Assembly (NCBI GenBank): GCA_965222315.1
Contig: OZ244951.1
Coordinates: forward strand, 962,407-1,026,406
DNA from: Alphaproteobacteria bacterium
GTDB taxonomy: Bacteria > Pseudomonadota > Alphaproteobacteria > Bin95
Direction: 5' to 3'
DNA length: 64,000 nucleotides
Positions 10,922-58,466 of this stretch are shown here, in pieces (the first letter of the stretch is position 1; each line of letters begins with the position of its first letter). The notes under the pieces are model-generated. The model made no database searches and was not told the origin of the DNA. It saw only the letters and a list, made by a program, of their open reading frames with translations. The translations under genes and the position numbers were made by a program.

Positions 10922-10977
10922 TTAGAAGCGCTCATGTTTCGGTGGCATGCGCGCTGGAAGCCAAGGAGCGCTTTGCT

Positions 10978-13275
10978 ATGGCAGTCGCAGTTTCATATCC
11001 GGGCGTCTATATCCAAGAGGTACCCAGTGGCTCGCGGGCCATTGCCGGGGTTCCGACATCGGTCGCCGCCTTTGTCGGCTACACGGCGCGGGGCGCGGTT
11101 AACGATGCGACCCAGATATTCTCGTTTGCCGATTTCGAGCGGCGCTTTGGCGGCCTGAGCCTTGACAGCGACCTCAGCTATACCGTGAACCATTTCTTTC
11201 TGAATGGCGGCGCGACGGCCTATATCGTAAGGGTCGCCTCAGGCGCTTCGGCGGCATCCGTAGGGTTGCTGACTGCACCCGGGGGCACGCTCACCCTGAC
11301 GGCGTCAGCCAAGTCCGAAGGGCAGTGGGGCAATGCGCTGCTGCTGAGCGTTGACTATGCAACGTCAAACCCGGCGAGCTTGTTCAACCTGACCGTCCGC
11401 GAGTTGGTGGAACGCAGCGGCCGCTTGGTCGAAGCCCGGGTCGAGACCCACCGCAATCTCTCGATGAACGCCTTCTCCGGCAATTATGCGGTGGATGCCG
11501 TTAGCGCGGCCTCAGACCTGATCGAACTGACCAACGAGGGCGCGGCCATCAACGGGCGCGGCGAATCCCGTAGCGGTGATCTGCTGGCCCTGCCGGCCGC
11601 GCTCGGCGACGATGTCCGGCGGCTCGCGGTTTCTCTGGACGGCGGATCGTTCTACGAGTTCGACATTTTCGATGCAGGCGCGCTGCCAGCCGATCTGCCT
11701 ACGCTCGCCGGAGCTATCCAAACCCGTGTGCGGGGGCTTGAGCCCGGAAACGGCGCATTCGACAATTTCGACTGTGATATCGACAGCAACCAGATCCGCG
11801 CGCGCTCCGGCACCAGCAACGACCAGCGTTCGTCGGTCACTTTTGCGCCTGCCTCGATCCGCAGCGCGGCGGCGGCGCTGACGCTGGGCCTCGCCCACGG
11901 CGGACGGGAGACGTCTGCCGCGGCTTCTGTCCGGCCTGCCGTCACCGGCACGGCGAGTGACCGCATCCCAGATTTCGCGGCCCTGGTGTTCGCCGATCCG
12001 GAGCAAATGACGGTCAATCTGATCGATTCAGGCGGCACGACCCTCGCGAGCGAAACTGTAACGTTGCAGGACACGGGCGCGGCGACCCCGGTCAACGCGC
12101 CAACCACCTTGGATGAAGCCCGCTCCGCCATAGAGGCGGCGATGCGCGCCAGCAGCAACCCGTCCTTCTCGCAAGCGCGGGTGAGTGTCATCGACCGGAC
12201 GCTCTACATAGTACCAGGCGGCGATACAGCCTCGAACCGGTTCGAATTTACCGGCGCGGGTGCAGCGACTCTGACCCTTTCCAACGGCACTGGCGGCGTC
12301 CCCAATGTGGCGGCCTTTCAACTCGGCACCGGCCCGACGGTTCAGGCGCAGCAGGCAGGCACGCCCGGCAATGATGGCTCCCCGCCAAGTCCGGTTGAAA
12401 TTCAGGGCTCGCGGGCGGCCAAAACCGGCCTCTTTGCCCTCGAAGACGCGGATCTGTTCAATATGCTGAACATTCCCGGCCTTTCCGACGCCGGCGTCCT
12501 CGCAACCGCGATCAGCTACGCCGAAGAGCGCCGGTCGATGATCCTGATTGATATGCCGTCGACAGTTAACGATTTCGATGAGGCGCGGGACTGGATCAAC
12601 GATCCGGCGAATGCCGGGCTCCGCCACCGCAACGCCGTGAGCTATTTCCCACGGGTGCGGCTCGCCGATCCATTGCAGGGCAACCGCCTGCGCACCTTCG
12701 CCAATGCCGGGTTGATGGCAGGGCTCTATGCCCGCACGGATGCCGCGCGCGGCGTCTGGAAAGCACCGGCTGGGATCGAAGCACGGTTGCGCGGGGTGCA
12801 GGCGCTGGAATATGTGCTGAGCGATCCGGAAAACGGCGTTCTGAACCCGCTCGGCCTGAACTGCCTCCGCACCTTCCCCGTGACGGGCTCCGTCAGTTGG
12901 GGCGCGCGTACCATGGTCGGGGCGGACGCCCTGGCGAGTGAGTGGAAATATGTTCCGGTCCGCCGCATCGCGCTCTTCATCGAAGAAAGCCTCTACCGCG
13001 GCACCCAGTTCGTCGTGTTTGAGCCGAATGACGAGCCGTTGTGGGCGCAAATTCGGCTTTCGGTCGGCGCCTTCATGAACAACCTGTTCCGCCAGGGCGC
13101 GTTCCAGGGCTCTACCCCGCAGGAAGCCTATTTCGTGCGCTGCGACAGTTCGACGACGACCCAGGCCGACATTGACCTGGGCATCGTCAACATCGCCGTA
13201 GGCTTCGCGCCGCTGAAACCGGCTGAGTTTGTCGTCATTCAAATCCAACAACTTGCCGGGCAAAGCCAGGCTTAA
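10978..13275 (+). CDS. eCIS/phage contractile tail sheath protein (766 aa). ATG 10978 is preceded by AAGGAG; the track ORF starts at GTG 10942.
   Basis: Hallmark N-terminus VSYPGVYIQEVPSGSRAIAGVPTSVAAFVGYTARG of the contractile sheath (Afp2-4/Pvc2-4/T4 gp18 family). The C-terminal conserved sheath core is present. Confidence 0.85.
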   Translation: MAVAVSYPGVYIQEVPSGSRAIAGVPTSVAAFVGYTARGAVNDATQIFSFADFERRFGGLSLDSDLSYTVNHFFLNGGATAYIVRVASGASAASVGLLTAPGGTLTLTASAKSEGQWGNALLLSVDYATSNPASLFNLTVRELVERSGRLVEARVETHRNLSMNAFSGNYAVDAVSAASDLIELTNEGAAINGRGESRSGDLLALPAALGDDVRRLAVSLDGGSFYEFDIFDAGALPADLPTLAGAIQTRVRGLEPGNGAFDNFDCDIDSNQIRARSGTSNDQRSSVTFAPASIRSAAAALTLGLAHGGRETSAAASVRPAVTGTASDRIPDFAALVFADPEQMTVNLIDSGGTTLASETVTLQDTGAATPVNAPTTLDEARSAIEAAMRASSNPSFSQARVSVIDRTLYIVPGGDTASNRFEFTGAGAATLTLSNGTGGVPNVAAFQLGTGPTVQAQQAGTPGNDGSPPSPVEIQGSRAAKTGLFALEDADLFNMLNIPGLSDAGVLATAISYAEERRSMILIDMPSTVNDFDEARDWINDPANAGLRHRNAVSYFPRVRLADPLQGNRLRTFANAGLMAGLYARTDAARGVWKAPAGIEARLRGVQALEYVLSDPENGVLNPLGLNCLRTFPVTGSVSWGARTMVGADALASEWKYVPVRRIALFIEESLYRGTQFVVFEPNDEPLWAQIRLSVGAFMNNLFRQGAFQGSTPQEAYFVRCDSSTTTQADIDLGIVNIAVGFAPLKPAEFVVIQIQQLAGQSQA

Positions 13276-13297
13276 CCACGCGAAGGAGGGCACCGTC

Positions 13298-13813
13298 ATG
13301 GCCGAATTCAGCGTTAACCCGCAGCGCTTCGACCCCTACAAAAACTTTAAGTTCCGCGTGCGCTGGGATGGCCGGTTTGTCGCCGGAGTCTCCAAGGTCG
13401 GCGCACTGAAGCGCACGACGGAAGTCGTGGAGCATCGCGTCGGCGGTGACAGCTCGACCAGCCGCAAATCCCCCGGGCGCTCCAAGTTCGAACCGATTAT
13501 GCTGGAGCGCGGCGTCACCCACGACGCCGACTTTGAGGCCTGGGCCAACCTCGTTTGGAATGTCGAAGCGGGATTGGGGGCGGAAGTCTCGCTCGCGAAC
13601 TTCCGCAAAGACATCATCATCGAGATGTATAACGAGGCCGGCCAACTCGCGATTGCCTACAAGGTGTTCCGCTGCTGGGTCTCGGAATTCCAGGCTCTGC
13701 CGGAATTGGACGCTAATGCGAATGCCGTCGCCATTCAGTCAATCAAACTCGAAAATGAGGGCTGGATTCGCGATACCGAGGTGGCCGAGCCAACCGAGCC
13801 GACGCTTGGTTAG
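13298..13813 (+). CDS. eCIS inner tube protein (T4 gp19/Afp1-like, 172 aa). Start at ATG 13298 after GAAGGAGGG.
   Basis: MAEFSVNPQRFDPYKNFKFRVRWDGRFVAGVSKVGAL.. matches the conserved N-terminal strand pattern of the tube family. It sits immediately after the sheath. Confidence 0.75.
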   Translation: MAEFSVNPQRFDPYKNFKFRVRWDGRFVAGVSKVGALKRTTEVVEHRVGGDSSTSRKSPGRSKFEPIMLERGVTHDADFEAWANLVWNVEAGLGAEVSLANFRKDIIIEMYNEAGQLAIAYKVFRCWVSEFQALPELDANANAVAIQSIKLENEGWIRDTEVAEPTEPTLG

Positions 13814-13844
13814 GCCGGGCGCTGGAGCCGAATGGAGGTGAACC

Positions 13845-14537
13845 ATGACCTCTACCCTCTCGCCTGCCGCACTGCTCCAGGCTTGGGAAACCGCTGAAGG
13901 ACGAAGCACCATCGACCGGCCGCTGGTTCTGCTGTGGGCGGCGGGCGGCGGTGCTGATTTGGCCGATCGCCCCTTGGTGGAGCGCGACCGGGCGCTGCTG
14001 GCGCTCCGCCGGGCGACGTTCGGGGATGAGATGGTCTGCGTGACCGACTGCCCGGCCTGTGGTGAACGCCTGGAGATGGCTGTATCAGCCGCCGCCTTGG
14101 TCGATGCCCTGCCTGCGGCGGAGCCTGAAGTGCTGATGGCGGCGGGCCAAAGTGTGACGGTGCGACCGTTCTCCAGCCGCGACGTGGCCTTGGCCGCTTC
14201 AGATGCGGACGATTCGGAAACCGCCCTGGTGCGGCTTGCCTCCACGTGTGAGGGCGAGCCGTGGCAAGCGGCGCTCGCCTTGGCGGCAGAGCGCTTGCAG
14301 GAAATCCAGGCGGCCGCCGAATTGCGCTTCACGCTGACATGCGGGGCATGCGGCGAGGTTTGGACAGAGGTGCTGGACGTTGCTGCCTATGTCTGGGCGG
14401 AAGTGAGGACCGCCGCCTACCGCCTGTTGGGTGAGGTGGCGGAGATCGCAAGGGCGCTCGGCTGGTCAGAACGGGAGATTCTGGCTTTGAGCCCGGCCCG
14501 CCGCGCCGCCTATCTCCAGATTGCGAGAAGCGGATGA
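13845..14537 (+). CDS. eCIS-associated hypothetical protein (230 aa). It contains CxxC...CxxC pairs (CPACGERLE; CGACGEV), suggesting a zinc-ribbon.
   Basis: RBS GGAGGTG. Translationally coupled to downstream genes (ATGA overlap at 14534). Two CxxC motifs seen directly. Confidence 0.45.
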   Translation: MTSTLSPAALLQAWETAEGRSTIDRPLVLLWAAGGGADLADRPLVERDRALLALRRATFGDEMVCVTDCPACGERLEMAVSAAALVDALPAAEPEVLMAAGQSVTVRPFSSRDVALAASDADDSETALVRLASTCEGEPWQAALALAAERLQEIQAAAELRFTLTCGACGEVWTEVLDVAAYVWAEVRTAAYRLLGEVAEIARALGWSEREILALSPARRAAYLQIARSG

Positions 14538-15277
14538 CGAATCCTCTCGTCAATCTGATCGCCCGTGTCACCGGCCAGGCCGAGCCCCGCCTTCGCCCGC
14601 GCATCGCCTCGCGCTTTGAGGGCGGTGCGATGGCGGGCGAAGGCTTCCAGGAAGTGGCGGGCGAGCAGATTGTCCGCGCCCCGGAAACGCCAGCGCCTTC
14701 AATCGCTCCCCGGCCGCCCCAGCAACCGGCGCCAGCCGCCGAAACGATTGCTACCCAGCAGGGGAACACGGCAGCGCCTGTCGGGCAGCACGAACCCATC
14801 TTTCAGACATCAATCCGGGTAGAGCAGGAGGTTCCTGCTGCCCTGGTGCGCTCAACCGGAACCGCCACTCCGCCACCGCCCTTGATGCCGGAGGTTACGT
14901 CCTCCCCGGAAAACCATCACGAGACGGCACGGGAACCGGCTCTACCAGCGAGCCCGTTTGAGCCGGAGCAGGGGCCTCTATCGCAAGAGCCTCCCGAGCC
15001 CTTGCTCCCCCTGGAACCTCGGAAATTTGAACAAGGCCCGCCACAGCCTGCGCCGGATAGCGAGCCTTTCGCAGGGCTCTCCGCCCCCCAACCCAGCCGC
15101 CAACAGTCGGCAGCCTCCGGTGCCGTGCAGAACGAGCCACCGGAAATCGTCATCAATATTGGCCGTATTGACCTCCGTTCCCCGCCAGCCGCGCCGCCCG
15201 CGCCTCGCCCGCGCCCGCAGCGGCCCAAAACGACCGATCTCGGCGACTATCTGCGCGGCAAGGGGGGCAAGCGATGA
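14534..15277 (+). CDS. Pro/Ala/Gln-rich low-complexity protein (247 aa). Candidate tail-length tape-measure-like (Afp14 analog) or disordered scaffold.
   Basis: 4-nt start/stop overlaps on both sides. Extreme Pro/Glu/Gln content. Position upstream of the DUF4255 and ATPase genes, as for Afp14. Confidence 0.35.
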   Translation: MTNPLVNLIARVTGQAEPRLRPRIASRFEGGAMAGEGFQEVAGEQIVRAPETPAPSIAPRPPQQPAPAAETIATQQGNTAAPVGQHEPIFQTSIRVEQEVPAALVRSTGTATPPPPLMPEVTSSPENHHETAREPALPASPFEPEQGPLSQEPPEPLLPLEPRKFEQGPPQPAPDSEPFAGLSAPQPSRQQSAASGAVQNEPPEIVINIGRIDLRSPPAAPPAPRPRPQRPKTTDLGDYLRGKGGKR

Positions 15278-16611
15278 GCAACGTGCTTGCGATTGCGGCG
15301 GTGACCCAGTTGCTGAAGGACATGCTGAACGATGCCATGATCAATGGCGAGGTGAGTCAGGTGATGGGCGCGGATTTCGCCGTGACCGCGCTCCCGCCCG
15401 ACCGGGTGGTGAACGACCAGGCCGATCAGCAGCAGCCGACCCTGAACGTGTTTCTGCACCGCATCACGCCGAACGCGGCGCTCCAGCAGGATGACTTCCC
15501 GACCCGGGACAGCTCCGGCAGGCTAATCCGGCGGCCGCGGCTCGCGCTCAACCTGCATTATATGCTGACGGCCATCGGGGCTGACGAGCTTCAGGCGGAG
15601 ATCCTGCTCGGCTACGCCATGCAGATGTTTCACGAAACGCCGATCCTGGGCCGCGAGCAAATCCGAAGCGCGCTGCAACTCGCCGGCCCGCCCGATGACT
15701 TGCTGCCAGACAATCTGGGCTTGGTTCAGGCCGCCGCCCTCGCCGATCAGGCGGAACTCATCAAGATCACGCCGCATACGCTGTCCATGGACGATATGTC
15801 GAAGATGTGGACAGCGTTGCAGGCCCGCTACCGCACTACGGTCGCCTATGACGTGTCCCTGGTGCTGATCGAGCGTGAACTGCCGACCCGCCCGACCCTG
15901 CCGGTCCTCAGCCGCGGCGGCCTGCCGGACCCAGTAACGGGCCGCGACCCCGGCGTGCTGGTCCAGCCTAACCTGAATGCAACCGCGCCCTGCCTGCTTT
16001 CCATTGAGCCGCTGGACGGCCAGCCGGTGATGCGCCTCGGCGGGCAGGTGGCCCTGACCGGCGTCGGCTTCACCCGTGGCGATGCCCGCGTTCTTTTCAC
16101 CGAGCCCGGCACCGGCAGCGTGCTCGAACTCGCCCCGTTGGCCCCGGCAACCGACCGGCGGTTGGTCGTGCAACTGCCCGCGGGGCCGCCGCTCGCGGGC
16201 GCGCATCCGCTCGCCAACAGCGCCGCGGATCCGGGTGCATGGCGCATCGGGCCGTTTCACATAGAGGTGCGTCTGACTGAGCCCGATGGCCGCGAAACCC
16301 TGACCAACGCCCTGCCAGCCGCACTAGCGCCCGCAGCGGTACCCATGGCTGCGCCGGACCCCGGCGGCACCCTCATCACCATCGATACCGAGCCGCGCAT
16401 CCGCGCCGGTCAGCGCGTTGCCATCATCGTCGGGGGGGAGATGCAATTGCTGACTTCCCCCGGCGCACCGGCGGCGCAGGTGCAGGCGGTCTTTGCGGGC
16501 CTGCCATCCGGGGTTTCCCTGCCGATCCGCCTGCGGGTGGATGATGTCGATAGTCCGGTGATTGACCGCAGCACCGATCCGCCGAGCCTGATTACGGTGG
16601 CGATCCCATGA
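15274..16611 (+). CDS. DUF4255-type eCIS tail terminator/cap-like protein (Afp16/Pvc16 analog, 445 aa).
   Basis: N-terminus MSNVLAIAAVTQLLKDMLNDAM matches the conserved start of DUF4255 proteins found in eCIS loci. It is directly upstream of the AAA+ ATPase. Confidence 0.55.
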   Translation: MSNVLAIAAVTQLLKDMLNDAMINGEVSQVMGADFAVTALPPDRVVNDQADQQQPTLNVFLHRITPNAALQQDDFPTRDSSGRLIRRPRLALNLHYMLTAIGADELQAEILLGYAMQMFHETPILGREQIRSALQLAGPPDDLLPDNLGLVQAAALADQAELIKITPHTLSMDDMSKMWTALQARYRTTVAYDVSLVLIERELPTRPTLPVLSRGGLPDPVTGRDPGVLVQPNLNATAPCLLSIEPLDGQPVMRLGGQVALTGVGFTRGDARVLFTEPGTGSVLELAPLAPATDRRLVVQLPAGPPLAGAHPLANSAADPGAWRIGPFHIEVRLTEPDGRETLTNALPAALAPAAVPMAAPDPGGTLITIDTEPRIRAGQRVAIIVGGEMQLLTSPGAPAAQVQAVFAGLPSGVSLPIRLRVDDVDSPVIDRSTDPPSLITVAIP

Positions 16612-18533
16612 ACCAACCTGCCGCCTTCGAACCTCGACCATCTGCAACCGGGCGCATGCGCCAGGCGATGGCGGCGGCGGTTGCTGACCTTGGCGAGCGA
16701 TTGGCCGCCTTGTCGACTGGCGAGGAGCCGCAGCCCAAAGACGTGGCCCGCGATCTGGACTCACCGCTTTCCATGCTGGCGGACCTTTTCGGTCTGAATG
16801 GGGCGGAGCAGACCATGCTGCTGCTCGCCGCTGCGGCGGAACTGGAGCCACGCCTTTCCGACCAGATCCGTGCCATTTGCGGCAGCGAGCGCCCGGATGC
16901 CGGCCTCGCCCTGGCGCTAACGGCGGAGGAGGGGTGGGAGGCGCTCTGCCCGGAAGCGCCCCTGCGGCGCTGGCGGCTGGTCGAGCTTGTCGGCAACGGC
17001 CCGATGCTGCGGCGCTCGCTGGTGCTGGACGAGCGCATCACGCATTTTCTGATGGGCATTAACTATTGCGACGGGCGGCTGGAAGGAGTGGTCCGGCTGA
17101 TCGAACCCTCCCGACGCATCGGCGAACGGGAGCAGGCAGCCGCCGGCGCCATCACCGCCGCGTGGGATGAAACCGGCTGCCCGCTGACGGTCATCTTGCT
17201 GGCCAGTCCCGACCGCATCGCAAACCGCGAGGTAGCGGCTCACGGCGCCCGTGGTCTCCGCCTGCGTCTGCTGGCGATCGACGCCGCCGATATTCCGGGC
17301 GACCCGGCGGCGAGGCATGGCTTTGCGGTCCTTCTGGAGCGCGAACTGGTGCTCTCCGGCGCTGCGGCCTTCATTGAAGTTTCCGATGCGGCCGCCGCCC
17401 CGCAAGCCCAGCGTCTGGCCGACAGCCTGCAGGGGCCAACAATACTGGCAGGCGGCGATCCCCCGTTGCCCGCGCGTAGCCCCCGCCGCCGCATCGACCT
17501 TGCCGCGCCGGATCGGTTCGAGCGCCGGGCGTTTTGGCAGGATGCCCTCGGCATTCAGGCGCATGCGCTGGGGCCGGGTCTCGACCGGCTGGCGGAGCAG
17601 TTTGCGCTGGACAGGGGCGGGATCACGGCTACCGTCGAGAGTGCCGTCAATAGCGCGCCCGTCCCGCCGGAAAAGCTGCTGGGTAGCCTCTGGCAGGCGG
17701 CTCGGGTGCAGGGGCGCCGCCATCTGGACAGCCTTGCGAGCCGGATCGAAAGCCGTGCTACCTGGGATGACCTGGTGCTGCCCGCCGAGCCGATGGCGCA
17801 ACTGCGCGATTTGGCGGGGCATGTCCGTGAGTCCTGGCGTGTCCACCAGGAATGGGGCTGGGCCGCGAAGAGTGACCGCGGCCTGGGGGCGGCGGCGCTT
17901 TTCGCCGGGGCCTCCGGCACGGGCAAGACCCTGGCGGCAGAGGTGCTGGCCGGCGAATTGCAGCTCGATCTCTATCGCATCGACCTCAGCCAGGTGATCA
18001 GCAAATATATCGGCGAGACAGAAAAGAACCTTGCCCGCATTTTCGCGGCGGCGGAGGACGGCGGCGCAATCCTGCTGTTCGACGAAGCTGACGCCCTTTT
18101 CGGCAAGCGGAGCGAGGTGAAGGACAGCCACGACCGCTACGCCAACGTTGAAGTCTCCTACCTCCTCCAGCAGATGGAAGCCTACCGTGGCCTGGCGATC
18201 CTCACCACGAACCTGAAGAGCGCGGTCGATACCGCATTCCTTCGACGGCTGCGGTATGTGGTGAACTTTCCGTTCCCAGATGCTGCGGCGCGAGCCGCGA
18301 TCTGGGCGCGGATCTTCCCGCCTCAAACCCCTCTGGACCGTGTTGAGCCTGCACAGCTTGCCCGGCTGAGCATTACCGGTGGCGCAATCCGCTCCATCGC
18401 TTTGAATGCCGCATTCCTCGCCGCCGCCGATGCCAAAGCGGTAGCGTCCGCTCACATTCTGACCGCGGCAAGGCGCGAATACGCGAAGCTGGAGAAGCCC
18501 TTCACCCAGGCGGAGCAGGGGGCCTTCCGATGA
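16608..18533 (+). CDS. eCIS AAA+ ATPase (Afp15/Pvc15-like, 641 aa).
   Basis: Walker A GASGTGKTLAAEVLA. Walker B ILLFDEADALFGKR. Sensor/arginine finger region. Single C-terminal AAA module with a long N-terminal domain, typical of the eCIS ATPase. Confidence 0.85.
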   Translation: MNQPAAFEPRPSATGRMRQAMAAAVADLGERLAALSTGEEPQPKDVARDLDSPLSMLADLFGLNGAEQTMLLLAAAAELEPRLSDQIRAICGSERPDAGLALALTAEEGWEALCPEAPLRRWRLVELVGNGPMLRRSLVLDERITHFLMGINYCDGRLEGVVRLIEPSRRIGEREQAAAGAITAAWDETGCPLTVILLASPDRIANREVAAHGARGLRLRLLAIDAADIPGDPAARHGFAVLLERELVLSGAAAFIEVSDAAAAPQAQRLADSLQGPTILAGGDPPLPARSPRRRIDLAAPDRFERRAFWQDALGIQAHALGPGLDRLAEQFALDRGGITATVESAVNSAPVPPEKLLGSLWQAARVQGRRHLDSLASRIESRATWDDLVLPAEPMAQLRDLAGHVRESWRVHQEWGWAAKSDRGLGAAALFAGASGTGKTLAAEVLAGELQLDLYRIDLSQVISKYIGETEKNLARIFAAAEDGGAILLFDEADALFGKRSEVKDSHDRYANVEVSYLLQQMEAYRGLAILTTNLKSAVDTAFLRRLRYVVNFPFPDAAARAAIWARIFPPQTPLDRVEPAQLARLSITGGAIRSIALNAAFLAAADAKAVASAHILTAARREYAKLEKPFTQAEQGAFR

Positions 18534-18784
18534 GCCGTCAGCGCGTGACACTGCATATCGATCGCATCGTTATCGACGGGCCGCACATGTCCCGCGCCGC
18601 CCTGGCGGACGTAATTTTGGCGGAATTGCAGCGTGCGCTGTCAGCGCCCGGCGCGCTGGATGCCTTGAAGGGGGCCGGGTCCGTGCCGCGGGTTAACGCG
18701 GGCGAAGTGCGCCCCGCCAATTCGGGTCCCACGGGTCTCGGCACCGCCATCGCCCACGCAACCATGGGAGCGTTGAAGCGATGA
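18530..18784 (+). CDS. Small hypothetical protein (84 aa) translationally coupled between the ATPase and the first cargo candidate. Possible adaptor/chaperone.
   Basis: ATGA overlaps at both ends. No recognisable motif. Confidence 0.35.
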   Translation: MSRQRVTLHIDRIVIDGPHMSRAALADVILAELQRALSAPGALDALKGAGSVPRVNAGEVRPANSGPTGLGTAIAHATMGALKR

Positions 18785-20226
18785 AGACCCGCGCCAAACG
18801 CTCTCAAACAACCGCCAATCCTATTGCATTCGCCGGAAATGGCGGCCCGGCGGCCGCTGCGCCAGCGAGCGCGCCGCAACCCAAGCTGCAGGACCCGAAC
18901 CGCTTTCAGCAGGTTCACCAGAAGGTCCGGGTCTCCGGTCCTACCCGCCCGCCGCCCTCCGGCGGTGGCCCCGCGCAGAAGCGTAAGCCCTGGGTCGATC
19001 CCTCGGCGCCTGGCAAGATGGACGGTACTGATGGCGTCATCTTCAACCAGGCGTTCAATTTCCTCGATATGCGGAACTTCACGACCCCGTCGTCGAAAAA
19101 CACGACGGAGGCGAACCTGGACACCGATGCGGTCGATGCCCACAACCGGGTAAAGGGTCACTATCCGCAAATAACCTCTCCGCTCTCCGACAGCGCGATT
19201 GAGGGTGCGGTCAGCGTGTTCAAGCCATCGTCGATCAAAGGCGACATGGATTACCTGAATCAGTGGATGGACAATTTTATCGGCAAAATGTCGAAGGCCG
19301 ATGAATTTGACATTGATCCTTCGAACGCGGCCTACCGCGCGATGATCGAGAAACTGATCAAGGACAAGACCGTCGGCCCCAAAATCCTGATCCTCGCCTC
19401 CCGGCAATCGGCCTTCGCCCGTGGTGACGGCAGCAAGCGGGAGGTTTTCGTCCATTCGAAAGTGAAAGCCGCCGACCGGCGCACCACGCTGATCCACGAG
19501 CTGGTGCACTTCTACGCACACAAGACCTACCGGAAGTGGGTCGAAGCCTCGAAGGACGAGCGCCATTACAACGAGGGCCTGACCGAGTGGCTCGCGCGGA
19601 AAGTGATGACCGCCTCGGAATTGAGCGGCCGGAACAAATACCAGAACCGCGTCGATACGGTGAATAAGCAGATCGCGGCGCACATCCCGGAAGACGGAAT
19701 CGCCAGGGCCTTTTTCGGCGGGGAGGTCTGGCGCTTCGAAACCCGCAGCGACGAGGCGCGCGCGGCCTTCAAGACCGCGACGGGGATCGAGGAGGGAGCC
19801 AGCGCCGATGTGGAGCGGGAAGCGTCCCGTACCGGCGCGGGTCTGGTCCAGACCGTGGAACCGCGCAAGCACTACCGTTTCCTGAACCTGGGCTTTGCCG
19901 AGTCCCAGCCGAAAAGCGAGCATGAGGCGACCTTCAAGGGGGTAAAGGCTCAGACATTCGATAAGGATTCCTCGCTGAAATTCCGCTTTGTCGGCCATGC
20001 TTCCAGCCCCGGCAGTGAGGCCGCTAACAGGGAAGTCGCGCGCAAACGCTCGGTTGCCTTCTACCGGATGGCCCGGCGGGAAGGCGTTCCGTGGAACCGG
20101 CTGGCTGATGCCGCCCGCCCGCCGCATTTCGGCGAGAGCAAGCCCACCGTGACCGAAGAGGACGCCATCACCCGCGCCATGAACCGGCGGGTAGAGATGT
20201 TCCTGGTGAAGGGAACTGGGCCATGA
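18781..20226 (+). CDS. Putative eCIS cargo/effector. It has a disordered Pro/Gly-rich N-terminus, a central HExxH zinc-metallopeptidase-like motif (LIHELVHFYAH) and a C-terminal OmpA/MotB-like peptidoglycan-binding domain.
   Basis: HELVH motif seen directly. C-terminal ..FRFVGHASSPGSEAANREVARKRSVAFYRMARREGVPWNRLADAARPPHFGESKPTVTEEDAITRAMNRRVEMFLV matches the OmpA_C consensus (GHxD/S..G...N..LS..RA...L...G......GES.P.....NRRVE). Confidence 0.5.
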   Translation: MKTRAKRSQTTANPIAFAGNGGPAAAAPASAPQPKLQDPNRFQQVHQKVRVSGPTRPPPSGGGPAQKRKPWVDPSAPGKMDGTDGVIFNQAFNFLDMRNFTTPSSKNTTEANLDTDAVDAHNRVKGHYPQITSPLSDSAIEGAVSVFKPSSIKGDMDYLNQWMDNFIGKMSKADEFDIDPSNAAYRAMIEKLIKDKTVGPKILILASRQSAFARGDGSKREVFVHSKVKAADRRTTLIHELVHFYAHKTYRKWVEASKDERHYNEGLTEWLARKVMTASELSGRNKYQNRVDTVNKQIAAHIPEDGIARAFFGGEVWRFETRSDEARAAFKTATGIEEGASADVEREASRTGAGLVQTVEPRKHYRFLNLGFAESQPKSEHEATFKGVKAQTFDKDSSLKFRFVGHASSPGSEAANREVARKRSVAFYRMARREGVPWNRLADAARPPHFGESKPTVTEEDAITRAMNRRVEMFLVKGTGP

Positions 20227-22855: not shown

Positions 22856-22886
22856 GCCATGAAGAACAAGCCTTGAGGGACGAGCC

Positions 22887-23246: not shown

Positions 23247-23260
23247 AGACAGGCGTAACC

Positions 23261-24894: not shown

Positions 24895-24914
24895 GAAGGG
24901 AGGCGCGAGACACC

Positions 24915-25235: not shown

Positions 25236-25254
25236 CGGGAGGCTCTGGACAGCC

Positions 25255-30928: not shown

Positions 30929-33075
30929 ACCGTATAACGCCACAAGCGCTCTACGAGTTGCTGCCCGCCATCATCCGAATGCGGGACGCTGACGAGGGCG
31001 AGCCGCTCCGGGCGCTTTTCGCCGTGCTCGCCCGCGAAGGCAGTGTCATTGAGGAAAATATAGAGCAACTGCTCGACGATCTTTTCATCGAAACCGCCGC
31101 CGACTGGGCTACGCCCTATATCGGCGGCGTGATCGGCTACCGCGCGCTGCATGAGATCGAAGGCACCGTTGTCAGCCCGCGGACAGAGGTCGCGAACACG
31201 ATCGGCTACCGCCGCCGCAAGGGCACGGCGGCTGTCCTTGAGCAGCTTGCCCACGATGTCACCGGCTGGCCCGCCCGTGTGGTGGAGTATTTCCAGCTCG
31301 TCGCCACCTGCCAGTACATGAACCACATCCGGCCAGGCCATCATTGGGCGCCCGATCTGGCCGATCCGCTGACCCTGGAGCCGGTGGGCCGCGCGTTCGA
31401 TCCGGTTGCCCGTACGGTGGATGTCCGCTCGATCAACCGCGCGGGCAGCCGTAAAAGTACCGGCGGCAAGCACAATCTGCCCAATATTGGTCTCTATCTC
31501 TGGCGGCTGGGGGCGATGCGGCAGAGCAATACGCCCGCTTCGATGGTGGATGCGCGGCGCTACCGGTTCGACCCGCTGGGCGCTGACCGGCCCCTGATTA
31601 ACCGGCCACTCGCCGAAGACCACATCACCCATCTGGCCAGGCCGGAAAACGTGCCGGGCTTCCTCACCCGGCGGCAATTGCATGATGAGCCCGCGCTCTG
31701 GTATCCGCGCGCGTTCGAGATATTTGTCGATGGCGTGGCCGTCCCGGTAGAGCAAATTCAGACCTGCGATTTGGCTGATGACGGTCCGGGGTGGAACCAC
31801 TCCCCGCATACCGCTGCCGGAGTCAATTTCCCGGTACGCGTCGATCCGGAGCGGGGCCGCTTCGCCTTCCCGGATGAAGAGGAGAGGGAGGTCCGCACAA
31901 CGTTCCACCTCGGCTTCCCCGGCCAGATTGGCGGCGGCGAGTACAACCGGGCGGCTGGACTGGCGCAACCCACGACCGAGCGCCCGCTTGTCGTCTTCCC
32001 CCATCCGGTCCACGCGACTATCCAGGACGCGCTGAACGCGCTGCCCGCGGCGGGCGGGATCGTGGAAATCCGCGCGAACGATATTTTTGCAGCGCCGGTA
32101 TTGCTCGACCTTGCCGCCGGGGCGGAGGTGGAGCTTCGCGCAGGCGATGGCCTGCGCCCGATCTTGAATGCAGCCGCGCCGTTCGTGCTTTCCGGCGGCT
32201 CAGATGCCTGCGTCAGCCTCAATGGGCTGGTGCTCATGGGCAGCCGGATCAGCATTGAGGCCAATGGCGGCGGCGAGTCGCTGGGCGAGGTCACGTTGCG
32301 CCATATGACCTTGGTCCCGGGCCTTGGCCTGACTGAGGTGGGCGGGCCGGCTTCGCCTGAAGCGGTGAGCCTCCAGGTCTCCGCCGTCGGCGTTGAACTG
32401 ACGCTGGACCGTTCGATTTCCGGGCCACTTCGCATGGTGGACACCACCAACGTCGAAATCCGCGATTCCCTGATCGATGCCGCTGCGCTCGACACACTCA
32501 ACAGTGCGGAAGCGCTGGCGATCAGCGGCATAGGCGCCGCGGCGGAACCGGCAGGCGCGCTCACCATTATCGCCTCGACGGTCATTGGCCGGATCACGGC
32601 GAGAGCATTCCCGCTGGTCTCGAACAGCATCCTGCATGCCCGCGCGTCCCAGCCGGGCGAGGTGCCGGTGCGGGCCTTCCAGCGCCAGGACGGCTGTATG
32701 CGCTTCAGCTTCGTGCCGCAGGGCTCGATCACGCCGCGGCGCTACCGCTGCCAGCCACAACTAGCCATCGACCAGGCAGTAAAGGCGCGGGAGGCCGAAA
32801 CCGGCGTCCAAATCACCCAGGCCCAGCGGGCGCTCATCACTAGCCGCATCGCCCGCTGGCTTATTCCGAGTTTCACCGCCCATTCCTACGCCCATCCGGC
32901 CTATGCGCAGTTGCGGGAGGCCGCGCCTGCGGAAATCCGCACCGGCGCCGACGATGAAAGCGAAATGGGCGTCTGGCACCACCTGTTCCAACCGCAGCGC
33001 GAGGCGAACTTGCGCATCCGGCTCGACGAATACCTGCGCTTCGGTCTGGAAGCCGGTGTCTTTTTCGAGACGTAA
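30925..33075 (+). CDS. P2 gpI-like baseplate protein (716 aa).
   Basis: N-terminus LLPAIIRMRDADEGEPLRALFAVLAREGSVIEENIEQLLDDLFIETAADWATPYIGGVIGY matches the tail-protein-I N-terminal pattern. Confidence 0.55.
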   Translation: MNRITPQALYELLPAIIRMRDADEGEPLRALFAVLAREGSVIEENIEQLLDDLFIETAADWATPYIGGVIGYRALHEIEGTVVSPRTEVANTIGYRRRKGTAAVLEQLAHDVTGWPARVVEYFQLVATCQYMNHIRPGHHWAPDLADPLTLEPVGRAFDPVARTVDVRSINRAGSRKSTGGKHNLPNIGLYLWRLGAMRQSNTPASMVDARRYRFDPLGADRPLINRPLAEDHITHLARPENVPGFLTRRQLHDEPALWYPRAFEIFVDGVAVPVEQIQTCDLADDGPGWNHSPHTAAGVNFPVRVDPERGRFAFPDEEEREVRTTFHLGFPGQIGGGEYNRAAGLAQPTTERPLVVFPHPVHATIQDALNALPAAGGIVEIRANDIFAAPVLLDLAAGAEVELRAGDGLRPILNAAAPFVLSGGSDACVSLNGLVLMGSRISIEANGGGESLGEVTLRHMTLVPGLGLTEVGGPASPEAVSLQVSAVGVELTLDRSISGPLRMVDTTNVEIRDSLIDAAALDTLNSAEALAISGIGAAAEPAGALTIIASTVIGRITARAFPLVSNSILHARASQPGEVPVRAFQRQDGCMRFSFVPQGSITPRRYRCQPQLAIDQAVKAREAETGVQITQAQRALITSRIARWLIPSFTAHSYAHPAYAQLREAAPAEIRTGADDESEMGVWHHLFQPQREANLRIRLDEYLRFGLEAGVFFET

Positions 33076-33093
33076 AGGAGGCACGCGAAAACC

Positions 33094-36000
33094 ATGAGTG
33101 GCGACTACAGCAGAGACACCTTCGACGCCCTCCGCGACTATGCCGGCGTCTTCCTGCAACAGGGCCGGGCCGCGCTCGATGCCGACTGGAACGAGATGGT
33201 CGCCATCTTCGAACGCCGCATCCGCGCCGCGACGGTCGATACCATCGGCCGGGCCGTGGTGCCGCTGGAAACGCCTCTTGGCTTCCAGATCCAGCTTGCG
33301 GCAGGCCCCTCCGTTTCCATCGGCCGCGGCCGCAAATACCTGCACGGCCTGTTGCTCGAGTGCCACGGCCAGTTTGATGCAAGCACCGCAGTATTCGACC
33401 GCGGGCGCGACGGCGCCAACGGGCCGGAGGGCGTGCTGGACGAACTGATTTCCCCGGCAGGTGGTGACTTCGTGCCCTACACCAGTCAGCCCTATTGGCC
33501 AACACCGGAACCCTTGCCACAGTCGAGTGGTCCGCATCTGGCCTATGTGGTCGCCTGGCAACGCGAGGTGACTGCGCTCGAAAACCTCGCCTTGCTGGAG
33601 CCCGCCCTGGGCGGGCTCGACACCGCAACGCGCTGGCAGACAGTCTGGCAGGTGCGGTTCCTGAGCAATGTCGGTGCGAATACGACGTGCGCCACGCCGG
33701 ACGATCAACTGGCCGGATGGGAGGCGGAAATCGCGCCCTCCACCGCCCGGCTCACCACGCGCACCATCGAAATCGAGGATCCGGAAGATCCCTGCCTGGT
33801 ACCGCCGACCGGTGGCTTTACCGGGATCGAGAACCAGCTTTACAGGGTCGAATTGCACACGGTCGGTGCGGCGCAGACCGACGCGCGCTTCAAGTTCAGC
33901 CGCGAAAACGCCTCGGTTGCCGCCAGTATCGAGAGCTTCGGCAACCCCGCCGACCGCATCACGGTGCAGCGCATCGGCCGTGACGAGGTTCTGCGCTTCC
34001 GCGCGGGCGACTGGGTGGAAGTCACCGACGACCACCGGGAGTTCAATCACCAGTCGGGCCAGATGCTGCGGGTCGCCGTCGCTAACGAGGAAACCCGCGA
34101 GATCGAACTGGAAGGCACCATCGCTGCTGATCTGGTGCCGAGCGGCATCGGCACGGACACGCCCGCCAACCGGCGCAGCCGCCTGATCCGGTGGGACCAG
34201 CGTGGCATCATCCGCGACACCGATGGCAATCAGTGGGTGGACCTGGATGCTCCCGCCTCTGACGGTCTGATCCCCGTGCCGCCAACCGGCACTGTGCTAG
34301 TGCTGGAATCGGGGATTACGGTGGAGTTTTCCGCTGCCGCCCAGCCCACAGGCGGTTTTCGTGCAATGGACTATTGGCGCTTCGCCGCCCGCACCGCCGG
34401 TACGCAGATCGAAGAGCTTACCAGCGCGCCACCGGATGGAATCCAGCGGCATTACAGCCGCCTCGCCATCGTGACATTCCCAAATTCGGTTCAGGATTGC
34501 CGCGTCTTCTGGCCGCCCAATTTCGGCAGCGAGGCAGAGAGTTGCTGCTGCACTGTCTGCGTTACGCCGGAAACCCACAATGCCGGCGCGCTGACCATCC
34601 AGGCCGCCATCGATCAGATCGGGTCGGAGGGCGGTACGGTCTGCCTTTCCGGCGGCACCTATGTCTTACAGGCGCCCGTTACCATCGACGGCGGCGTTGC
34701 GGTGACGGTGGAAGGGCAGGGGGCGCTGACCCTGCTGGTCTATCAGGGCACCGGTCCCGCGATCCGTGTCCGCCGCTCCGCCGATATTCAGTTGCAGCGC
34801 TTCAGCATCGTGGCGCGCCTCCAAGGGACCGACGATGTCGGTGTTCCGGCAACGCCGGTCGCGGGCATCGCCTTGGAGAACACCGCGCTTGCAGCACTCC
34901 GCCGTATTGCGGTGCTGGTTGTCGCCAGCGGCGATGTCCGCAGAGATCCGGCCATCGCGCTGGATGGTGTCGCCATCGGCACCAAGATCGAAGAATGCCT
35001 GGCGCTGGCGCCGGTCGCGCTCGGGTCACTTGGCACCAGCGATGCGTTCGGCGTGCAGCAGAGCCCGGATTTTCTGGCCCTTGCCGAGCTTCGGGTGCTC
35101 GACAATATCCTGTTCGGGTCGGAAGCCGGTGTGCAGTTCGGCGGCCTTGCCATCAATATCGCCAACGCGATTTTCGACCGGAACATGGTTCTGGGCGGCA
35201 CGTCGGGCATGGACGTCAATTGGTTTGAGGCCAACCTCGGCGCGACCGCCATCGACGGCAACGCGGTCACCTCGAACGGCACCGGTCTGCGCCTCGGCGT
35301 CAATCACCTGCGATTGCAGGACAATCAGATCAGCGGAGGAAGCCAGACTGGCGACGGTGTCGATCTGGTTCCGAACTTCGTACCAGCGACAGAGATAGAC
35401 GCCCAGGTGATAGGCAACAGCATCGGCGATCTGGCTGGCAGCGGCATCCGTCTGCAAGGCCAGTTCGGCACGCTGCTTATCAAGCGCAACATCATCCGCC
35501 GCTGCCGGGAAGCCGGTATCGCCGCCACCGGCAAGCAGATCATTCGCTACACGGCTATCGACAATAATATCATTGAGGATATCGCCGACAGCGTCGATCA
35601 GCTTGGCGCGGGCGCCATCGTGCTCTCCCGGATCGAGGAGGGGCTCGTTTCCGGAAACCGTATCCGGGGCGTTGGCCAGGGCGGCGACCAGAGCCAGACT
35701 TATGTTGGTGTCGCTGTCTATGGGGTCGGCATCGTCTCGGTTGAGAGCAACACCGTATCGGAGATTGGGCCGGGCAATGCCGCCAGTCCCGCTGCCGGTA
35801 TTTGGGGACGCTTGCCCTATTTCGAGCTTTCGGCCCGTGGCAATCGTGTGAGCGGCGCGCTGACCAACACGCAGAACGACCGCTCGCTCGCCTGGATCGG
35901 CCTGTTGATCGGGGAGGCCAACACAAGGCCGAATTCCCCGGCTGCTGGTGCATTTACAGCCAGCGTCCCAGGCCTGGCCGCCGACCAGATCGTCTTCGCA

Positions 36001-36408
36001 ACCGTCGGCAATCAATGGTTCGCCGTGACCAACGAAAGCCTGCGTGCCGTTGGTCCGGTCCGCGAGCGGCAAATTCTGATCAACGCCAACCAGATCTACC
36101 ATGCGGGCGAGACCAATCAGCCGCTAGTTTCCGCGATGGATACCGGCGATGCCACGACGACCTTCACCGACAACCAGGTCCGGCTGGAAGCCATCGGCGC
36201 GGTTCCAGCCATCGTTTCGATCACCGCGCCACGGGTGATCGCCGGAAACAACGCCGTCCGCCGCCGCTCCGACCAGGACGCCATGCACATCAATGTCGGC
36301 GAGGCCGGCGCTGCGACCGTCATCGGCAATATTACGTTCGGGAACATCCGCGTCTTCCCGAATGGGCTGAACCCGCCGTTCGACGCCCTCAACTTACTCG
36401 CCAGCTAA
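33094..36408 (+). CDS. Giant tail-fibre / receptor-binding protein with right-handed parallel beta-helix repeats (1104 aa; Afp13 analog).
   Basis: Long runs of ~22-25 aa repeats with NxxxG / IxGN periodicity (e.g. VIGNSIGDLAGSGIRLQG, IDNNIIEDIADSV, VSGNRIRGVGQGG). These are typical of pectate-lyase-like beta-helix fibres. Last large gene of the operon. Confidence 0.6.
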   Translation: MSGDYSRDTFDALRDYAGVFLQQGRAALDADWNEMVAIFERRIRAATVDTIGRAVVPLETPLGFQIQLAAGPSVSIGRGRKYLHGLLLECHGQFDASTAVFDRGRDGANGPEGVLDELISPAGGDFVPYTSQPYWPTPEPLPQSSGPHLAYVVAWQREVTALENLALLEPALGGLDTATRWQTVWQVRFLSNVGANTTCATPDDQLAGWEAEIAPSTARLTTRTIEIEDPEDPCLVPPTGGFTGIENQLYRVELHTVGAAQTDARFKFSRENASVAASIESFGNPADRITVQRIGRDEVLRFRAGDWVEVTDDHREFNHQSGQMLRVAVANEETREIELEGTIAADLVPSGIGTDTPANRRSRLIRWDQRGIIRDTDGNQWVDLDAPASDGLIPVPPTGTVLVLESGITVEFSAAAQPTGGFRAMDYWRFAARTAGTQIEELTSAPPDGIQRHYSRLAIVTFPNSVQDCRVFWPPNFGSEAESCCCTVCVTPETHNAGALTIQAAIDQIGSEGGTVCLSGGTYVLQAPVTIDGGVAVTVEGQGALTLLVYQGTGPAIRVRRSADIQLQRFSIVARLQGTDDVGVPATPVAGIALENTALAALRRIAVLVVASGDVRRDPAIALDGVAIGTKIEECLALAPVALGSLGTSDAFGVQQSPDFLALAELRVLDNILFGSEAGVQFGGLAINIANAIFDRNMVLGGTSGMDVNWFEANLGATAIDGNAVTSNGTGLRLGVNHLRLQDNQISGGSQTGDGVDLVPNFVPATEIDAQVIGNSIGDLAGSGIRLQGQFGTLLIKRNIIRRCREAGIAATGKQIIRYTAIDNNIIEDIADSVDQLGAGAIVLSRIEEGLVSGNRIRGVGQGGDQSQTYVGVAVYGVGIVSVESNTVSEIGPGNAASPAAGIWGRLPYFELSARGNRVSGALTNTQNDRSLAWIGLLIGEANTRPNSPAAGAFTASVPGLAADQIVFATVGNQWFAVTNESLRAVGPVRERQILINANQIYHAGETNQPLVSAMDTGDATTTFTDNQVRLEAIGAVPAIVSITAPRVIAGNNAVRRRSDQDAMHINVGEAGAATVIGNITFGNIRVFPNGLNPPFDALNLLAS

Positions 36409-36438
36409 CGCAGGCTTGCAGAAAGGAGCCCTTGCGCC

Positions 36439-36972
36439 ATGGCCCGAGGCATCACCCGCATCAGGAACGAAACGTCGCTCCGTTCGCTTGCCGAGCGCGT
36501 TTACGATATCAGCGGACCCAGCCGTGCGGAAAATCTGCGCAAGGCGGAATCCGCGCTTCTCAAAGCCAACCCCCAATTGCGCCGGGCCAACGGATTTGCG
36601 GCAGGCACCGTCATTATCGTTCCGGAGGTCGGCCTGGACCGGACCGGCAGCGTCGAACTGCCGTCGGCAGACCTGGACGGCGCGTTGAACGAGGCTGCTG
36701 CCCGCATCCAACAAGTCGCCGGGGAGGCGAAGAACGGCTTTTCGATTAGTCAGGATCAACGGAAAACCGCCCTCGCCAATCTGTCGGACGAGCGGTTCAT
36801 GGCTGAACTGGTCAAGTCTGACAGGAACGCCGTGAAGTTGGCGAAGCAAGCCCAGGACACGCTCCAAAAACAGGATGCGGTAGAGGAAGAGGCGATGGCG
36901 CGCTTGAGGCGTAGCCTCAGCGAGGCATCCAAAGAAATCGACCGGCTTCAACGCCTGACGAAGGGGCGGTAG
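36439..36972 (+). CDS. Hypothetical coiled-coil protein (177 aa), the last gene of the eCIS operon. Candidate fibre assembly factor.
   Basis: Complete ORF. The C-terminal half is predicted helical (EAKNGFSISQDQRKTALANLSDERFMAELVKSD...). Confidence 0.35.
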   Translation: MARGITRIRNETSLRSLAERVYDISGPSRAENLRKAESALLKANPQLRRANGFAAGTVIIVPEVGLDRTGSVELPSADLDGALNEAAARIQQVAGEAKNGFSISQDQRKTALANLSDERFMAELVKSDRNAVKLAKQAQDTLQKQDAVEEEAMARLRRSLSEASKEIDRLQRLTKGR

Positions 36973-58465: not shown

Positions 58466-58466
58466 G

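Follow-up and report, generated by a model that had tools for sequence, protein, structure and literature searches.

A lineage II contractile injection system gene cluster with a variable, putative cargo slot in an alphaproteobacterium

Introduction

The closest described relatives of the gene cluster presented here, a contractile injection system (CIS) locus of a probably marine alphaproteobacterium, are those of Halogeometricum borinquense and Streptomyces coelicolor. The former, described as an "archaeal T6SS", belongs to clade IIa and is a membrane-bound, contact-dependent weapon akin to type VI secretion systems (T6SS) (PMC11566945), and the latter is a cytoplasmic CIS of subtype IId (PMC10066040). 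Together with the thylakoid-anchored CIS of Anabaena, they represent the three lineage-II-like systems studied so far (haloarchaeal, Streptomyces and Anabaena), each of which proved to be non-extracellular, and in the literature searched we found no characterised lineage II system from a Gram-negative proteobacterium. The cluster lies at positions 10978-36972 of the forward strand of a 64,000-nucleotide stretch (assembly GCA_965222315.1, contig OZ244951.1, positions 962,407 to 1,026,406), which as a whole is called the window below.

Lineage I offers further points of comparison, namely the antifeeding prophage (Afp) of Serratia entomophila, the Photorhabdus virulence cassettes (PVC) and AlgoCIS of Algoriphagus machipongonensis (PMC8894135). 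The lumen cargos of AlgoCIS, Cgo1 and Cgo2, consist of a disordered N-terminal loading sequence, a DUF4157 domain and a variable C-terminal domain; loading depends on their N-terminus and can do without DUF4157 (bioRxiv 10.64898/2026.05.27.728243). DUF4157 is a published marker of extracellular CIS (eCIS) that has been linked to toxins (PMC8213781).

A complete cluster of the eCIS superfamily

The block spans 26 kb and holds 20 consecutive genes, all on the same strand, arranged in three parts: g1-g6 encode sheath, tube, cap and ATPase, g7-g9 occupy a variable cargo slot, and g10-g20 encode baseplate, spike and fibre. Genes were identified with Pfam (curated thresholds), NCBIfam, PHROGs, sequence searches of the PDB and ortholog profiles; the values attached to families below are E-values, and lengths are in amino acids (aa).

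g1, 10978-13275, + strand: sheath protein (Cis2/Afp2-like), 765 aa; Pfam Phage_sheath_1C 3.4e-9
g2, 13298-13813, + strand: inner tube protein (Cis1/gp19-like), 171 aa; Pfam Phage_T4_gp19 8.5e-41
g3, 13845-14537, + strand: lineage-specific protein with two CxxC pairs, 230 aa; weak matches, conserved position
g4, 14534-15277, + strand: Pro-rich protein with conserved ends and a variable middle, 247 aa
g5, 15274-16611, + strand: tail terminator or cap (Cis16/Afp16-like); Pfam Pvc16_N (DUF4255) 4.9e-45 over residues 9-212
g6, 16608-18533, + strand: AAA+ ATPase (Cis15/Afp15-like) with N-terminal winged helix; Pfam AAA 1.6e-24, WHD 1.7e-15
g7, 18530-18784, + strand: small conserved protein, 84 aa; no family match
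g8, 18781-20226, + strand: first cargo candidate, 481 aa; gluzincin-like metallopeptidase plus OmpA-like domain
g9, 20223-22199, + strand: second cargo candidate; DUF4157/eCIS_core plus tandem Ig-like domains
g10, 22199-22855, + strand: tube-like baseplate or tube-initiator protein (Cis5/7-like), 218 aa; CIS_tube 4.3e-4, sub-threshold
g11, 22887-23246, + strand: small LysM-like protein, 119 aa; LysM-like motif in the sequence
g12, 23261-24388, + strand: gp27/gpD-like hub, N-terminal half of a split VgrG/Cis8 spike; ortholog profile
g13, 24385-24894, + strand: gp5/gpV OB-fold spike, C-terminal half of the split VgrG/Cis8; Pfam Phage_base_V 5.6e-19
g14, 24915-25235, + strand: PAAR-like spike tip, 106 aa; PAAR_motif 0.0018, DUF4280 0.0029
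g15, 25255-25617, + strand: gp25-like baseplate wedge (Cis9); Pfam GPW_gp25 1.8e-17
g16, 25614-28139, + strand: first gp6/J-like wedge (Cis11a), 841 aa; Pfam Baseplate_J 2.5e-5
g17, 28136-30928, + strand: second gp6/J-like wedge (Cis11b), 930 aa; PHROG baseplate wedge 4.7e-18
g18, 30925-33075, + strand: conserved protein at the Cis12/gpI position, 716 aa; placed by position only
g19, 33094-36408, + strand: tail fibre with DUF6519 (eBAP5) attachment domain and C-terminal right-handed beta-helix, 1104 aa
g20, 36439-36972, + strand: last gene of the operon, LysM-like N-terminal motif and coiled-coil tail, 177 aa

That this locus is a lineage II CIS cluster of the eCIS superfamily can be held with near certainty. 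It encodes a phage-type sheath and a gp19-type tube (with matches to CIS sheaths in the PDB down to 1e-73), a DUF4255/Pvc16_N terminator gene adjacent to a cluster-encoded AAA+ ATPase gene, a baseplate set made up of gp25, Baseplate_J, a gp27/gp5 spike and PAAR, and the DUF4157/eCIS_core marker in g9. A first-pass annotation, made from the sequence of the window, had described a complete eCIS-type cluster at 10978-36972, distinct from prophages and from the canonical T6SS, and had proposed a check with hidden Markov models (HMMs). This check bears the description out, since Phage_sheath_1C, Phage_T4_gp19, Pvc16_N/DUF4255, AAA, eCIS_core, Phage_base_V, GPW_gp25 and Baseplate_J all score above threshold. 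Both ends are exact as well, 10978 being the ATG of the sheath gene and 36972 the stop codon of g20. On the other hand, 22 genes had been counted where 20 are found, the number of items that the same annotation had itself listed. As for the pervasive 4-nucleotide (nt) overlaps that it mentioned, they stand for 10 of the 19 gene junctions and not for the other nine, which comprise one overlap of 1 nt and gaps of 14-31 nt; even so, such heavy overlap of starts and stops fits a single translationally coupled operon. All 20 proteins are full length with respect to their orthologs in the relative loci L081-L086 (53-95% identity), and the cluster is apparently complete and intact.

Relatives, gene order and subtype

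A genome-collection scan retrieved at least 80 related loci from many phyla, including Proteobacteria, Bacteroidota, Chloroflexota, Acidobacteriota, Cyanobacteria and Actinomycetota, as well as one archaeon; the best among the matches listed was Ancylobacter defluvii, at 56%. In tblastn with all 20 window proteins, 65 of the loci listed have at least four markers, and all except one of these (64/65) are colinear with the window, in the shared order sheath, tube, (g3), cap, ATPase, spacer, tube-like protein, LysM-like protein, gp27, gp5, PAAR, gp25 and J. Gene order in the window, which had at first been called unusual, is therefore the norm of the family. The sole non-colinear locus (L059, Hormoscilla sp. 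GUM202) apparently carries three tandem sheath-like matches before the tube, at 10001-14900, and has baseplate genes upstream of the sheath.

According to the criteria of Chen et al. 2019 (PMC6899500), two afp11 copies indicate subtype IIa or IIc and a split afp8 indicates IIa, IIb or IIc, while PAAR is missing only in IIb, divergent afp12/13 genes occur in IIa and IIb, and afp14 is absent from lineage II; for IIa the criteria include the absence of both afp14 (the tape measure) and afp6. The window holds two afp11 copies (g16 and g17), a split afp8 (g12 plus g13), the PAAR-like g14 and the fibre g19, so that by elimination it fits lineage II, subtype IIa, an assignment made by gene content and not by phylogeny against dbeCIS. 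The best solved sheath for g1 is likewise that of a IIa system, Halogeometricum Cis2 (252 bits, vs 242 bits for the IId Streptomyces Cis2). The first-pass annotation had spoken of an uncharacterised, unclassified lineage. This must be given up: gene content matches IIa (PMC6899500) and the DUF6519 (eBAP5)/beta-helix type of fibre has already been catalogued, with 658 genes (PMC12923769). The cluster extends a catalogued subtype by one member and does not found a lineage of its own, its architecture being the usual one of the subtype.

Comparison with described systems

The likeness to the Halogeometricum system is extensive. Both loci consist of two structural sub-clusters with an interspacing region containing DUF4157 genes between them; in each there are two Cis11/afp11 copies, a Cis8 split into gp27 plus gp5, PAAR and genes at the Cis12/13 position, and in neither is a tape measure or plug recognisable. 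They differ in host, an archaeon there and a Gram-negative alphaproteobacterium here, in the sheath, which is about 190 aa longer in the window, and in the interspacing region, which measures 3.7 kb with 3 genes here vs 8.7 kb with 9 genes in Halogeometricum. Furthermore, the Halogeometricum anchor Hbor_38620, with its six transmembrane helices, has no counterpart in the window.

The Streptomyces coelicolor system is close to the window in its sheath (1.7e-70) and Cis11-like wedges (5e-16 and 2e-7), and the two share the presence of a Cis16 cap and the lack of a recognisable tape-measure gene. Nevertheless, it has a single Cis11 gene, a contiguous Cis8 and no fibre, and needs the membrane protein CisA, whereas the present cluster has a pair of Cis11 genes, a spike divided in two, a fibre of 1104 aa and no predicted membrane protein.

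Within lineage I, AlgoCIS resembles the window in the layout of its cargo, which an AAA+ ATPase loads: g9 has the same layout, and g8 has a disordered N-terminus but no DUF4157, in keeping with the dispensability of this domain for loading in AlgoCIS. Otherwise AlgoCIS differs from the window in gene order, in having a tape measure and extra cap proteins, in its sheath, which is distant from g1 (1e-34), and in the C-terminal domains of its cargos, which are unrelated to those found here. Afp and PVC, the prototypes of extracellular systems, share with the window a common core of sheath, tube, LysM-type protein, spike, gp25, PAAR, J-like protein, fibre, AAA+ ATPase and DUF4255 cap. Both are lineage I systems, though, and have a 3'-terminal toxin block that the window operon lacks; in the window, the sheath gene is single, the spike split, the J-like gene doubled and the cargo placed mid-operon.

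A canonical T6SS is recognised by a TssB/TssC sheath pair, a TssJLM membrane complex and ClpV. T6SS of subtypes i-iii were considered for the window and rejected, given a single phage-type sheath gene, no predicted transmembrane protein among the 20 and no Tss family match in Pfam or NCBIfam.

A putative cargo slot

From the ATPase gene to the second tube-like gene, the spacer measures 298 to 4504 bp across 26 of the loci listed and 3663 bp in the window. With an HMM of our own, one to three DUF4157 open reading frames (ORFs) were found directly after the ATPase gene in 56 of the loci listed, and in the nearest relatives the slot holds two or three DUF4157 genes with differing C-terminal domains. 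In loci of Ancylobacter, Lewinellaceae, Calothrix, Acidobacteriota and Nitrospira, an ortholog of the small protein g7 immediately follows the ATPase gene. That the cluster would embed cargo candidates had been proposed in the first-pass annotation, along with effectors of its own, and the cargo proposal gains support from the variable length of the slot, the DUF4157 genes of the 56 loci and the domain architectures of g8 and g9.

The HExxH and OmpA-like features first noticed in g8 are both present. A disordered stretch (residues 1-36) is followed by a gluzincin-like domain, with HELVH at 239-243 and Glu265, and by an OmpA-like domain at about 371-476; the predicted structure has a pLDDT (predicted local distance difference test) of 85, falling below 50 in residues 1-36. 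H239, E240, H243 and E265 are invariant, this being the gluzincin signature. The family is small, comprising 49 clusters, and most members are 578-660 aa long and carry an N-terminal DUF4157; the g8 of the window, compared with P0130-P0135 and L083/L084, lacks this module and has retained the disordered N-terminus, and the same loss is seen in a minority of relatives (P0127-P0129, P0136, P0163). In an exhaustive search of 1.84 billion proteins, the zincin module occurred in 73 representative clusters only. Of 14 distant members scanned, 13 contain eCIS_core, often with OmpA after the zincin, and some are concatenated with other effector domains such as Peptidase_M91 or a caspase domain. This rarity, together with the association with eCIS_core, leads us to consider g8 a DUF4157-associated cargo module and not a housekeeping protein.

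Since its OmpA-like domain is of a peptidoglycan-binding type, the target suggested is periplasmic and hence bacterial: g8 would act in the Gram-negative periplasm, and the cargo as a whole points to a bacterial target. The idea of a peptidoglycan-binding cargo is not new, earlier predictions having placed such domains in 68 eCIS-associated toxins (PMC11297309). Apart from the window, some giant metagenomic proteins (P0278, 3166 aa; P0283, 2510 aa; P0249, 2134 aa) contain two or three DUF4157 modules each, every one followed by a different effector-like domain (zincin plus OmpA, Peptidase_M91), and look like fused multi-cargo polyproteins.

The second candidate, g9, begins with a low-complexity, Glu-rich N-terminus, continues with eCIS_core at 157-232 (HEITH, 1.8e-26) and a Pro/Ala linker, and ends in an all-beta C-terminal part (270-658). 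This is exactly the layout of the AlgoCIS lumen cargos, judging by sequence, while g8 would share with them the disordered N-terminus and a folded C-terminal part only. Residues ~60-135 of g9 (window 20400-20640) form three tandem Glu-rich units (LQRQAEEEEEEE..LQPKAE), repeats that would fit a disordered loading sequence. The C-terminal part is modelled (pLDDT 92) as a string of Ig-like beta-sandwiches, a model in which no enzyme or recognisable toxin fold was seen. Its domain family is small, consisting of 26 clusters, and is almost always fused to DUF4157; of three close relatives, just one has kept this C-terminal part.

Proteins of the machine

The sheath protein g1 has 905 detected homologs, and the nearest named ones are alphaproteobacterial (Pelagibius, Phaeobacter, Rhodovulum, Sneathiella, Sphingomonas, Ruegeria and Inquilinus). 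In the PDB it matches Halogeometricum Cis2 (9ezm) at 1.2e-73 and Streptomyces Cis2 (8bky) at 1.7e-70, with Pvc2 (2e-46) and Afp2 far behind. At 765 aa it exceeds the closest solved sheaths (534-574 aa), the PDB alignment covers mainly residues 465-760, and residues ~140-460, poorly conserved even in close relatives, look like an additional and variable domain on the outside; many of the related loci have shorter sheaths, of about 520 aa. The tube protein g2, by contrast, is 85-95% identical to its nearest relatives. g3 has weak matches to T4_baseplate (E 0.002) and a zinc ribbon (E 0.08), and is kept at the same position in loci of several phyla.

As to a tape measure or plug, no gene of the cluster matches one in Pfam, NCBIfam or PHROGs, and g3, g4 and g7 have no assignment. 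g4, previously put forward as a tape-measure candidate, has no family match in these three libraries; its conservation is confined to residues 1-49 and 197-247, the proteins of relatives being 218-287 aa long. Nothing beyond Pro-richness supports that label, which is speculative. The cap protein g5 extends about 230 aa past Pvc16_N into a C-terminal region that matches no family, and a single-sequence PDB search with it gave no match. The ATPase g6 is presumed to be the cargo loader, a role extrapolated from work on Pvc15 and Alg15 (PMC11495950; bioRxiv 10.64898/2026.05.27.728243).

In the baseplate module, several names initially given on inspection have fared unequally. g10, the first gene of the module in 26 of the loci listed, had been taken for a second tube-like protein: the sub-threshold CIS_tube match and a weak PDB match of its ortholog profile to a Salmonella CIS "peptidoglycan-binding protein" chain (9rce_H, E 0.005) speak for this, but no match rises above threshold and a single-sequence PDB search returned none. 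The LysM label of g11, conserved after g10 in at least 10 loci, agrees with the motif visible in its sequence, the NCBIfam match reaching only E 0.057. Better founded is the gpD hub, g12. Its single-sequence PDB search found no match and a profile was needed: built from 14 orthologs, this matches the Salmonella CIS VgrG at 9.6e-12 and the AlgoCIS, Anabaena and Streptomyces Cis8 proteins at 2.5e-4 to 5e-4, over their N-terminal halves (positions 31-344 of the 643-aa Streptomyces Cis8). With the OB-fold protein g13 following this gp27-like hub, the spike is split over two ORFs. PAAR holds for g14 too, which is sub-threshold alone; among its orthologs DUF4280 is found in 11/11 (best 1.6e-6) and PAAR_motif in 6/11, with invariant Cys/His residues.

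The wedge protein g16 matches Streptomyces Cis11 (9gtp, 5e-16) and T4 gp6 (1e-5) in the PDB. g17, below threshold in Pfam, is nonetheless a second J-like protein as first proposed, on the strength of its PHROG match and of Streptomyces Cis11 (9gtp, 2e-7), and it cross-matches g16 at 26-31% identity. The gpI-like label of g18, on the contrary, rests on position: searches of Pfam, PHROGs, NCBIfam and the PDB, with the protein alone or as a 5-member profile, were all empty, one ortholog matches Phage_Mu_Gp48 (E 0.019), and the protein is conserved at 33-79% identity in loci L085, L086 and L092. In the fibre g19, recognised from the start as a 1104-aa beta-helix protein, DUF6519 (1.5e-34) and Beta_helix (1.5e-8) are above threshold in Pfam. 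Finally, g20, without family match in Pfam, NCBIfam or PHROGs, is possibly fibre-associated; it follows the fibre gene directly in L085, L086 and L087 (30-43% identity), and in L085 and L086 the coding strand flips after its ortholog, from which we place the end of the operon at 36972.

Proposed mode of action and its alternatives

Gene identities, synteny, variability of the slot and domain architectures of the cargo are direct observations, and what follows on assembly, loading, release into the medium and target is a proposal modelled on characterised homologs. g10-g18 would assemble a baseplate around the split gp27 plus gp5 spike tipped by the PAAR-like protein, on which the tube protein g2 and the sheath protein g1 would polymerise until capped by the DUF4255 protein g5. 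The ATPase g6 would recognise the disordered N-termini of g8 and g9 and load both into the tube lumen. The trigger for sheath contraction would be a surface glycan bound by the DUF6519/beta-helix fibre g19, and the contraction would drive tube, spike and cargo into the target envelope.

With moderate confidence, we read the locus as a complete and apparently intact CIS of the Afp/PVC ("eCIS") superfamily, of subtype IIa, working by extracellular release and cargo loading. "Extracellular" is here a presumptive label; the set of genes does not by itself settle how the machine acts. Release is favoured by the lack of a predicted transmembrane helix in any of the 20 cluster proteins and by g19, a large fibre of receptor-binding type. 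Several points weigh on the other side: production and release of particles are predictions from the genes, the IIa assignment comes from gene content, the closest solved sheaths belong to non-extracellular systems (membrane-bound in Halogeometricum, cytoplasmic in Streptomyces), the Pfam scan of the larger ORFs showed no lysis cassette in the window for particle release, the cluster has no recognisable tape-measure protein, and g18 has no detectable homology to Afp12/gpI. The cargo raises questions of its own. g8 lacks the DUF4157 marker and g9, having no enzyme fold in its model, may not be a toxin. Canonical OmpA-family domains read GHTD, the Asp of which contacts diaminopimelate; that of g8 reads GHAS, and without this Asp its predicted binding to peptidoglycan is not assured.

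It is possible, with a clearly smaller likelihood, that the same machine is not extracellular and stays attached to or inside the producer cell, either as a contact-dependent, T6SS-like weapon as in Halogeometricum borinquense or as a stress-fired cytoplasmic or organelle-anchored device, as are the Streptomyces CIS and the thylakoid-anchored CIS of Anabaena. The best sheath matches (Halogeometricum Cis2 at 1.2e-73 and Streptomyces Cis2 at 1.7e-70, well ahead of Pvc2 and Afp2) lean that way, as do the best matches of both J-like proteins, which are to Streptomyces Cis11, the IIa gene content shared with the haloarchaeal T6SS-like system and the absence of lysis or holin genes among the larger ORFs of the window (Pfam). 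Anchored or cytoplasmic systems, however, need membrane proteins, such as Hbor_38620 with its six transmembrane helices or CisA, and no transmembrane segment is predicted in the 20 cluster products, although an anchor might be encoded elsewhere in the genome; a large beta-helix fibre of receptor-binding type is, moreover, typical of released particles. A narrower version, which we find rather improbable, is that the IIa machine may work in association with the cell, triggered by contact or stress, and deliver g8 as a peptidoglycan-tethered gluzincin protease into the periplasm of neighbours. If this were true, g8, devoid of DUF4157, would be a natural counterpart of the AlgoCIS result, its disordered N-terminus being sufficient for loading.

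Less credit still can be given to g8 as an accessory of the producer that would bind or remodel the cell's own peptidoglycan, anchoring the machine or letting particles out. With neither signal peptide nor transmembrane segment it would stay in the producer cytoplasm, most members of its family carry the cargo-type N-terminal DUF4157, and its disordered N-terminus resembles known loading sequences. As for a defective prophage tail or R-type tailocin, which would kill by membrane depolarisation and be cargo-free, we regard it as highly implausible. A phage origin holds for the sheath, tube, gp25, J-like and spike genes, and fragments of insertion sequences (IS) lie on both sides of the cluster. 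Yet tailocins lack the Pvc16_N cap, the AAA+ ATPase and DUF4157, all three being eCIS markers (PMC8213781), the larger ORFs of the window include no head, terminase, portal, integrase, holin or endolysin genes, there is no recognisable phage-type tape measure, and the synteny is common to hundreds of lineage II CIS loci.

Genomic context

Outside the cluster, the Pfam scan covered the larger ORFs (at least 100-120 aa) of the 64-kb window, and among these no capsid, terminase, portal, replication, phage integrase, lysis, holin or endolysin gene was found, in agreement with what the first-pass annotation had stated of capsid, terminase, integrase and lysis genes. The flanks contain metabolic genes, a MarR regulator, an alkyl sulfatase, Pel-type exopolysaccharide genes, GlmS and an RTX protein, and the cluster is bordered by two IS remnants:

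9818-10458, + strand: degraded IS6-family transposase remnant, upstream; DDE_Tnp_IS240 1e-9, 98-aa ORF
37237-37644, + strand: C-terminal remnant of an IS3-family transposase, downstream; rve_3 and rve_2, 135-aa ORF

By blastn, the former matches IS6 transposase genes at 64-70% identity with partial query coverage, and the latter IS3 transposases at 74-79% identity over about 250 bp. A composite transposon around the cluster was rejected, as the two fragments are of different families (IS6 and IS3) and both truncated. GC content is 0.61-0.70 inside the cluster vs 0.55-0.63 in the flanks, and the closest relatives adjoin hydrogenase-maturation, TRAP-transporter or transketolase genes, a different context each time, which makes the idea of an accessory island reasonable. 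Of the IS-bounded accessory region formerly proposed, the accessory region stands, its supposed boundaries being two unrelated IS fragments. No tRNA lies at the island borders; the only one in the window is a tRNA-Ser at 59583-59673.

An apparently intact two-ORF element of the IS3 family (HTH_Tnp_1 plus rve), at 57575-58841 on the minus strand, adjoins this tRNA-Ser(GGA) and gives a second indication that the region contains mobile DNA; it may be a relative of the IS3 fragment at 37237-37644.

Regarding regulation, no conserved promoter or operator was found 5' of the sheath gene, the upstream regions of four relatives do not align, and scans for consensus promoters and terminators stayed at chance level. 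GerE regulators have been reported beside eCIS operons (PMC8213781). A LuxR/GerE gene at 37874-38710 on the minus strand (GerE 8.4e-19) was examined as a conserved cluster regulator and judged unlikely: the fetched 3' ends of three relatives (L085-L087) have no LuxR/GerE homolog beside them, and the IS3 fragment separates the gene from the operon. Just downstream of the cluster, at 39196-42131 on the minus strand and in ORFs up to about 50642, lie Pel-type genes (PelG 2.6e-56, DUF3492 plus a GT4 PelF-like protein), with weak Poly_export, TPR and GH114 (PelA-like) matches nearby. Further on, a 1343-aa protein encoded at 52713-56744 on the minus strand, with RTX calcium-binding repeats near its C-terminus, is probably a type I secretion substrate.

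Concluding remarks

Catalogues already hold well over 1000 such clusters, to which the present one would otherwise add a further example. Its interest lies in the alphaproteobacterial clade, in IIa action across two membranes and in a zincin/OmpA-like cargo candidate that is naturally without DUF4157. The clade of the window is widespread in marine Alphaproteobacteria, for instance in Pelagibius, Phaeobacter, Ruegeria, Rhodovulum and Sulfitobacter, and would make a reasonable model for the IIa mode of action in a two-membrane bacterium. Its cargo candidates form a small and well-delimited pair, and g8, with its zincin residues and OmpA-like domain, constitutes a testable candidate for an effector acting in the periplasm.

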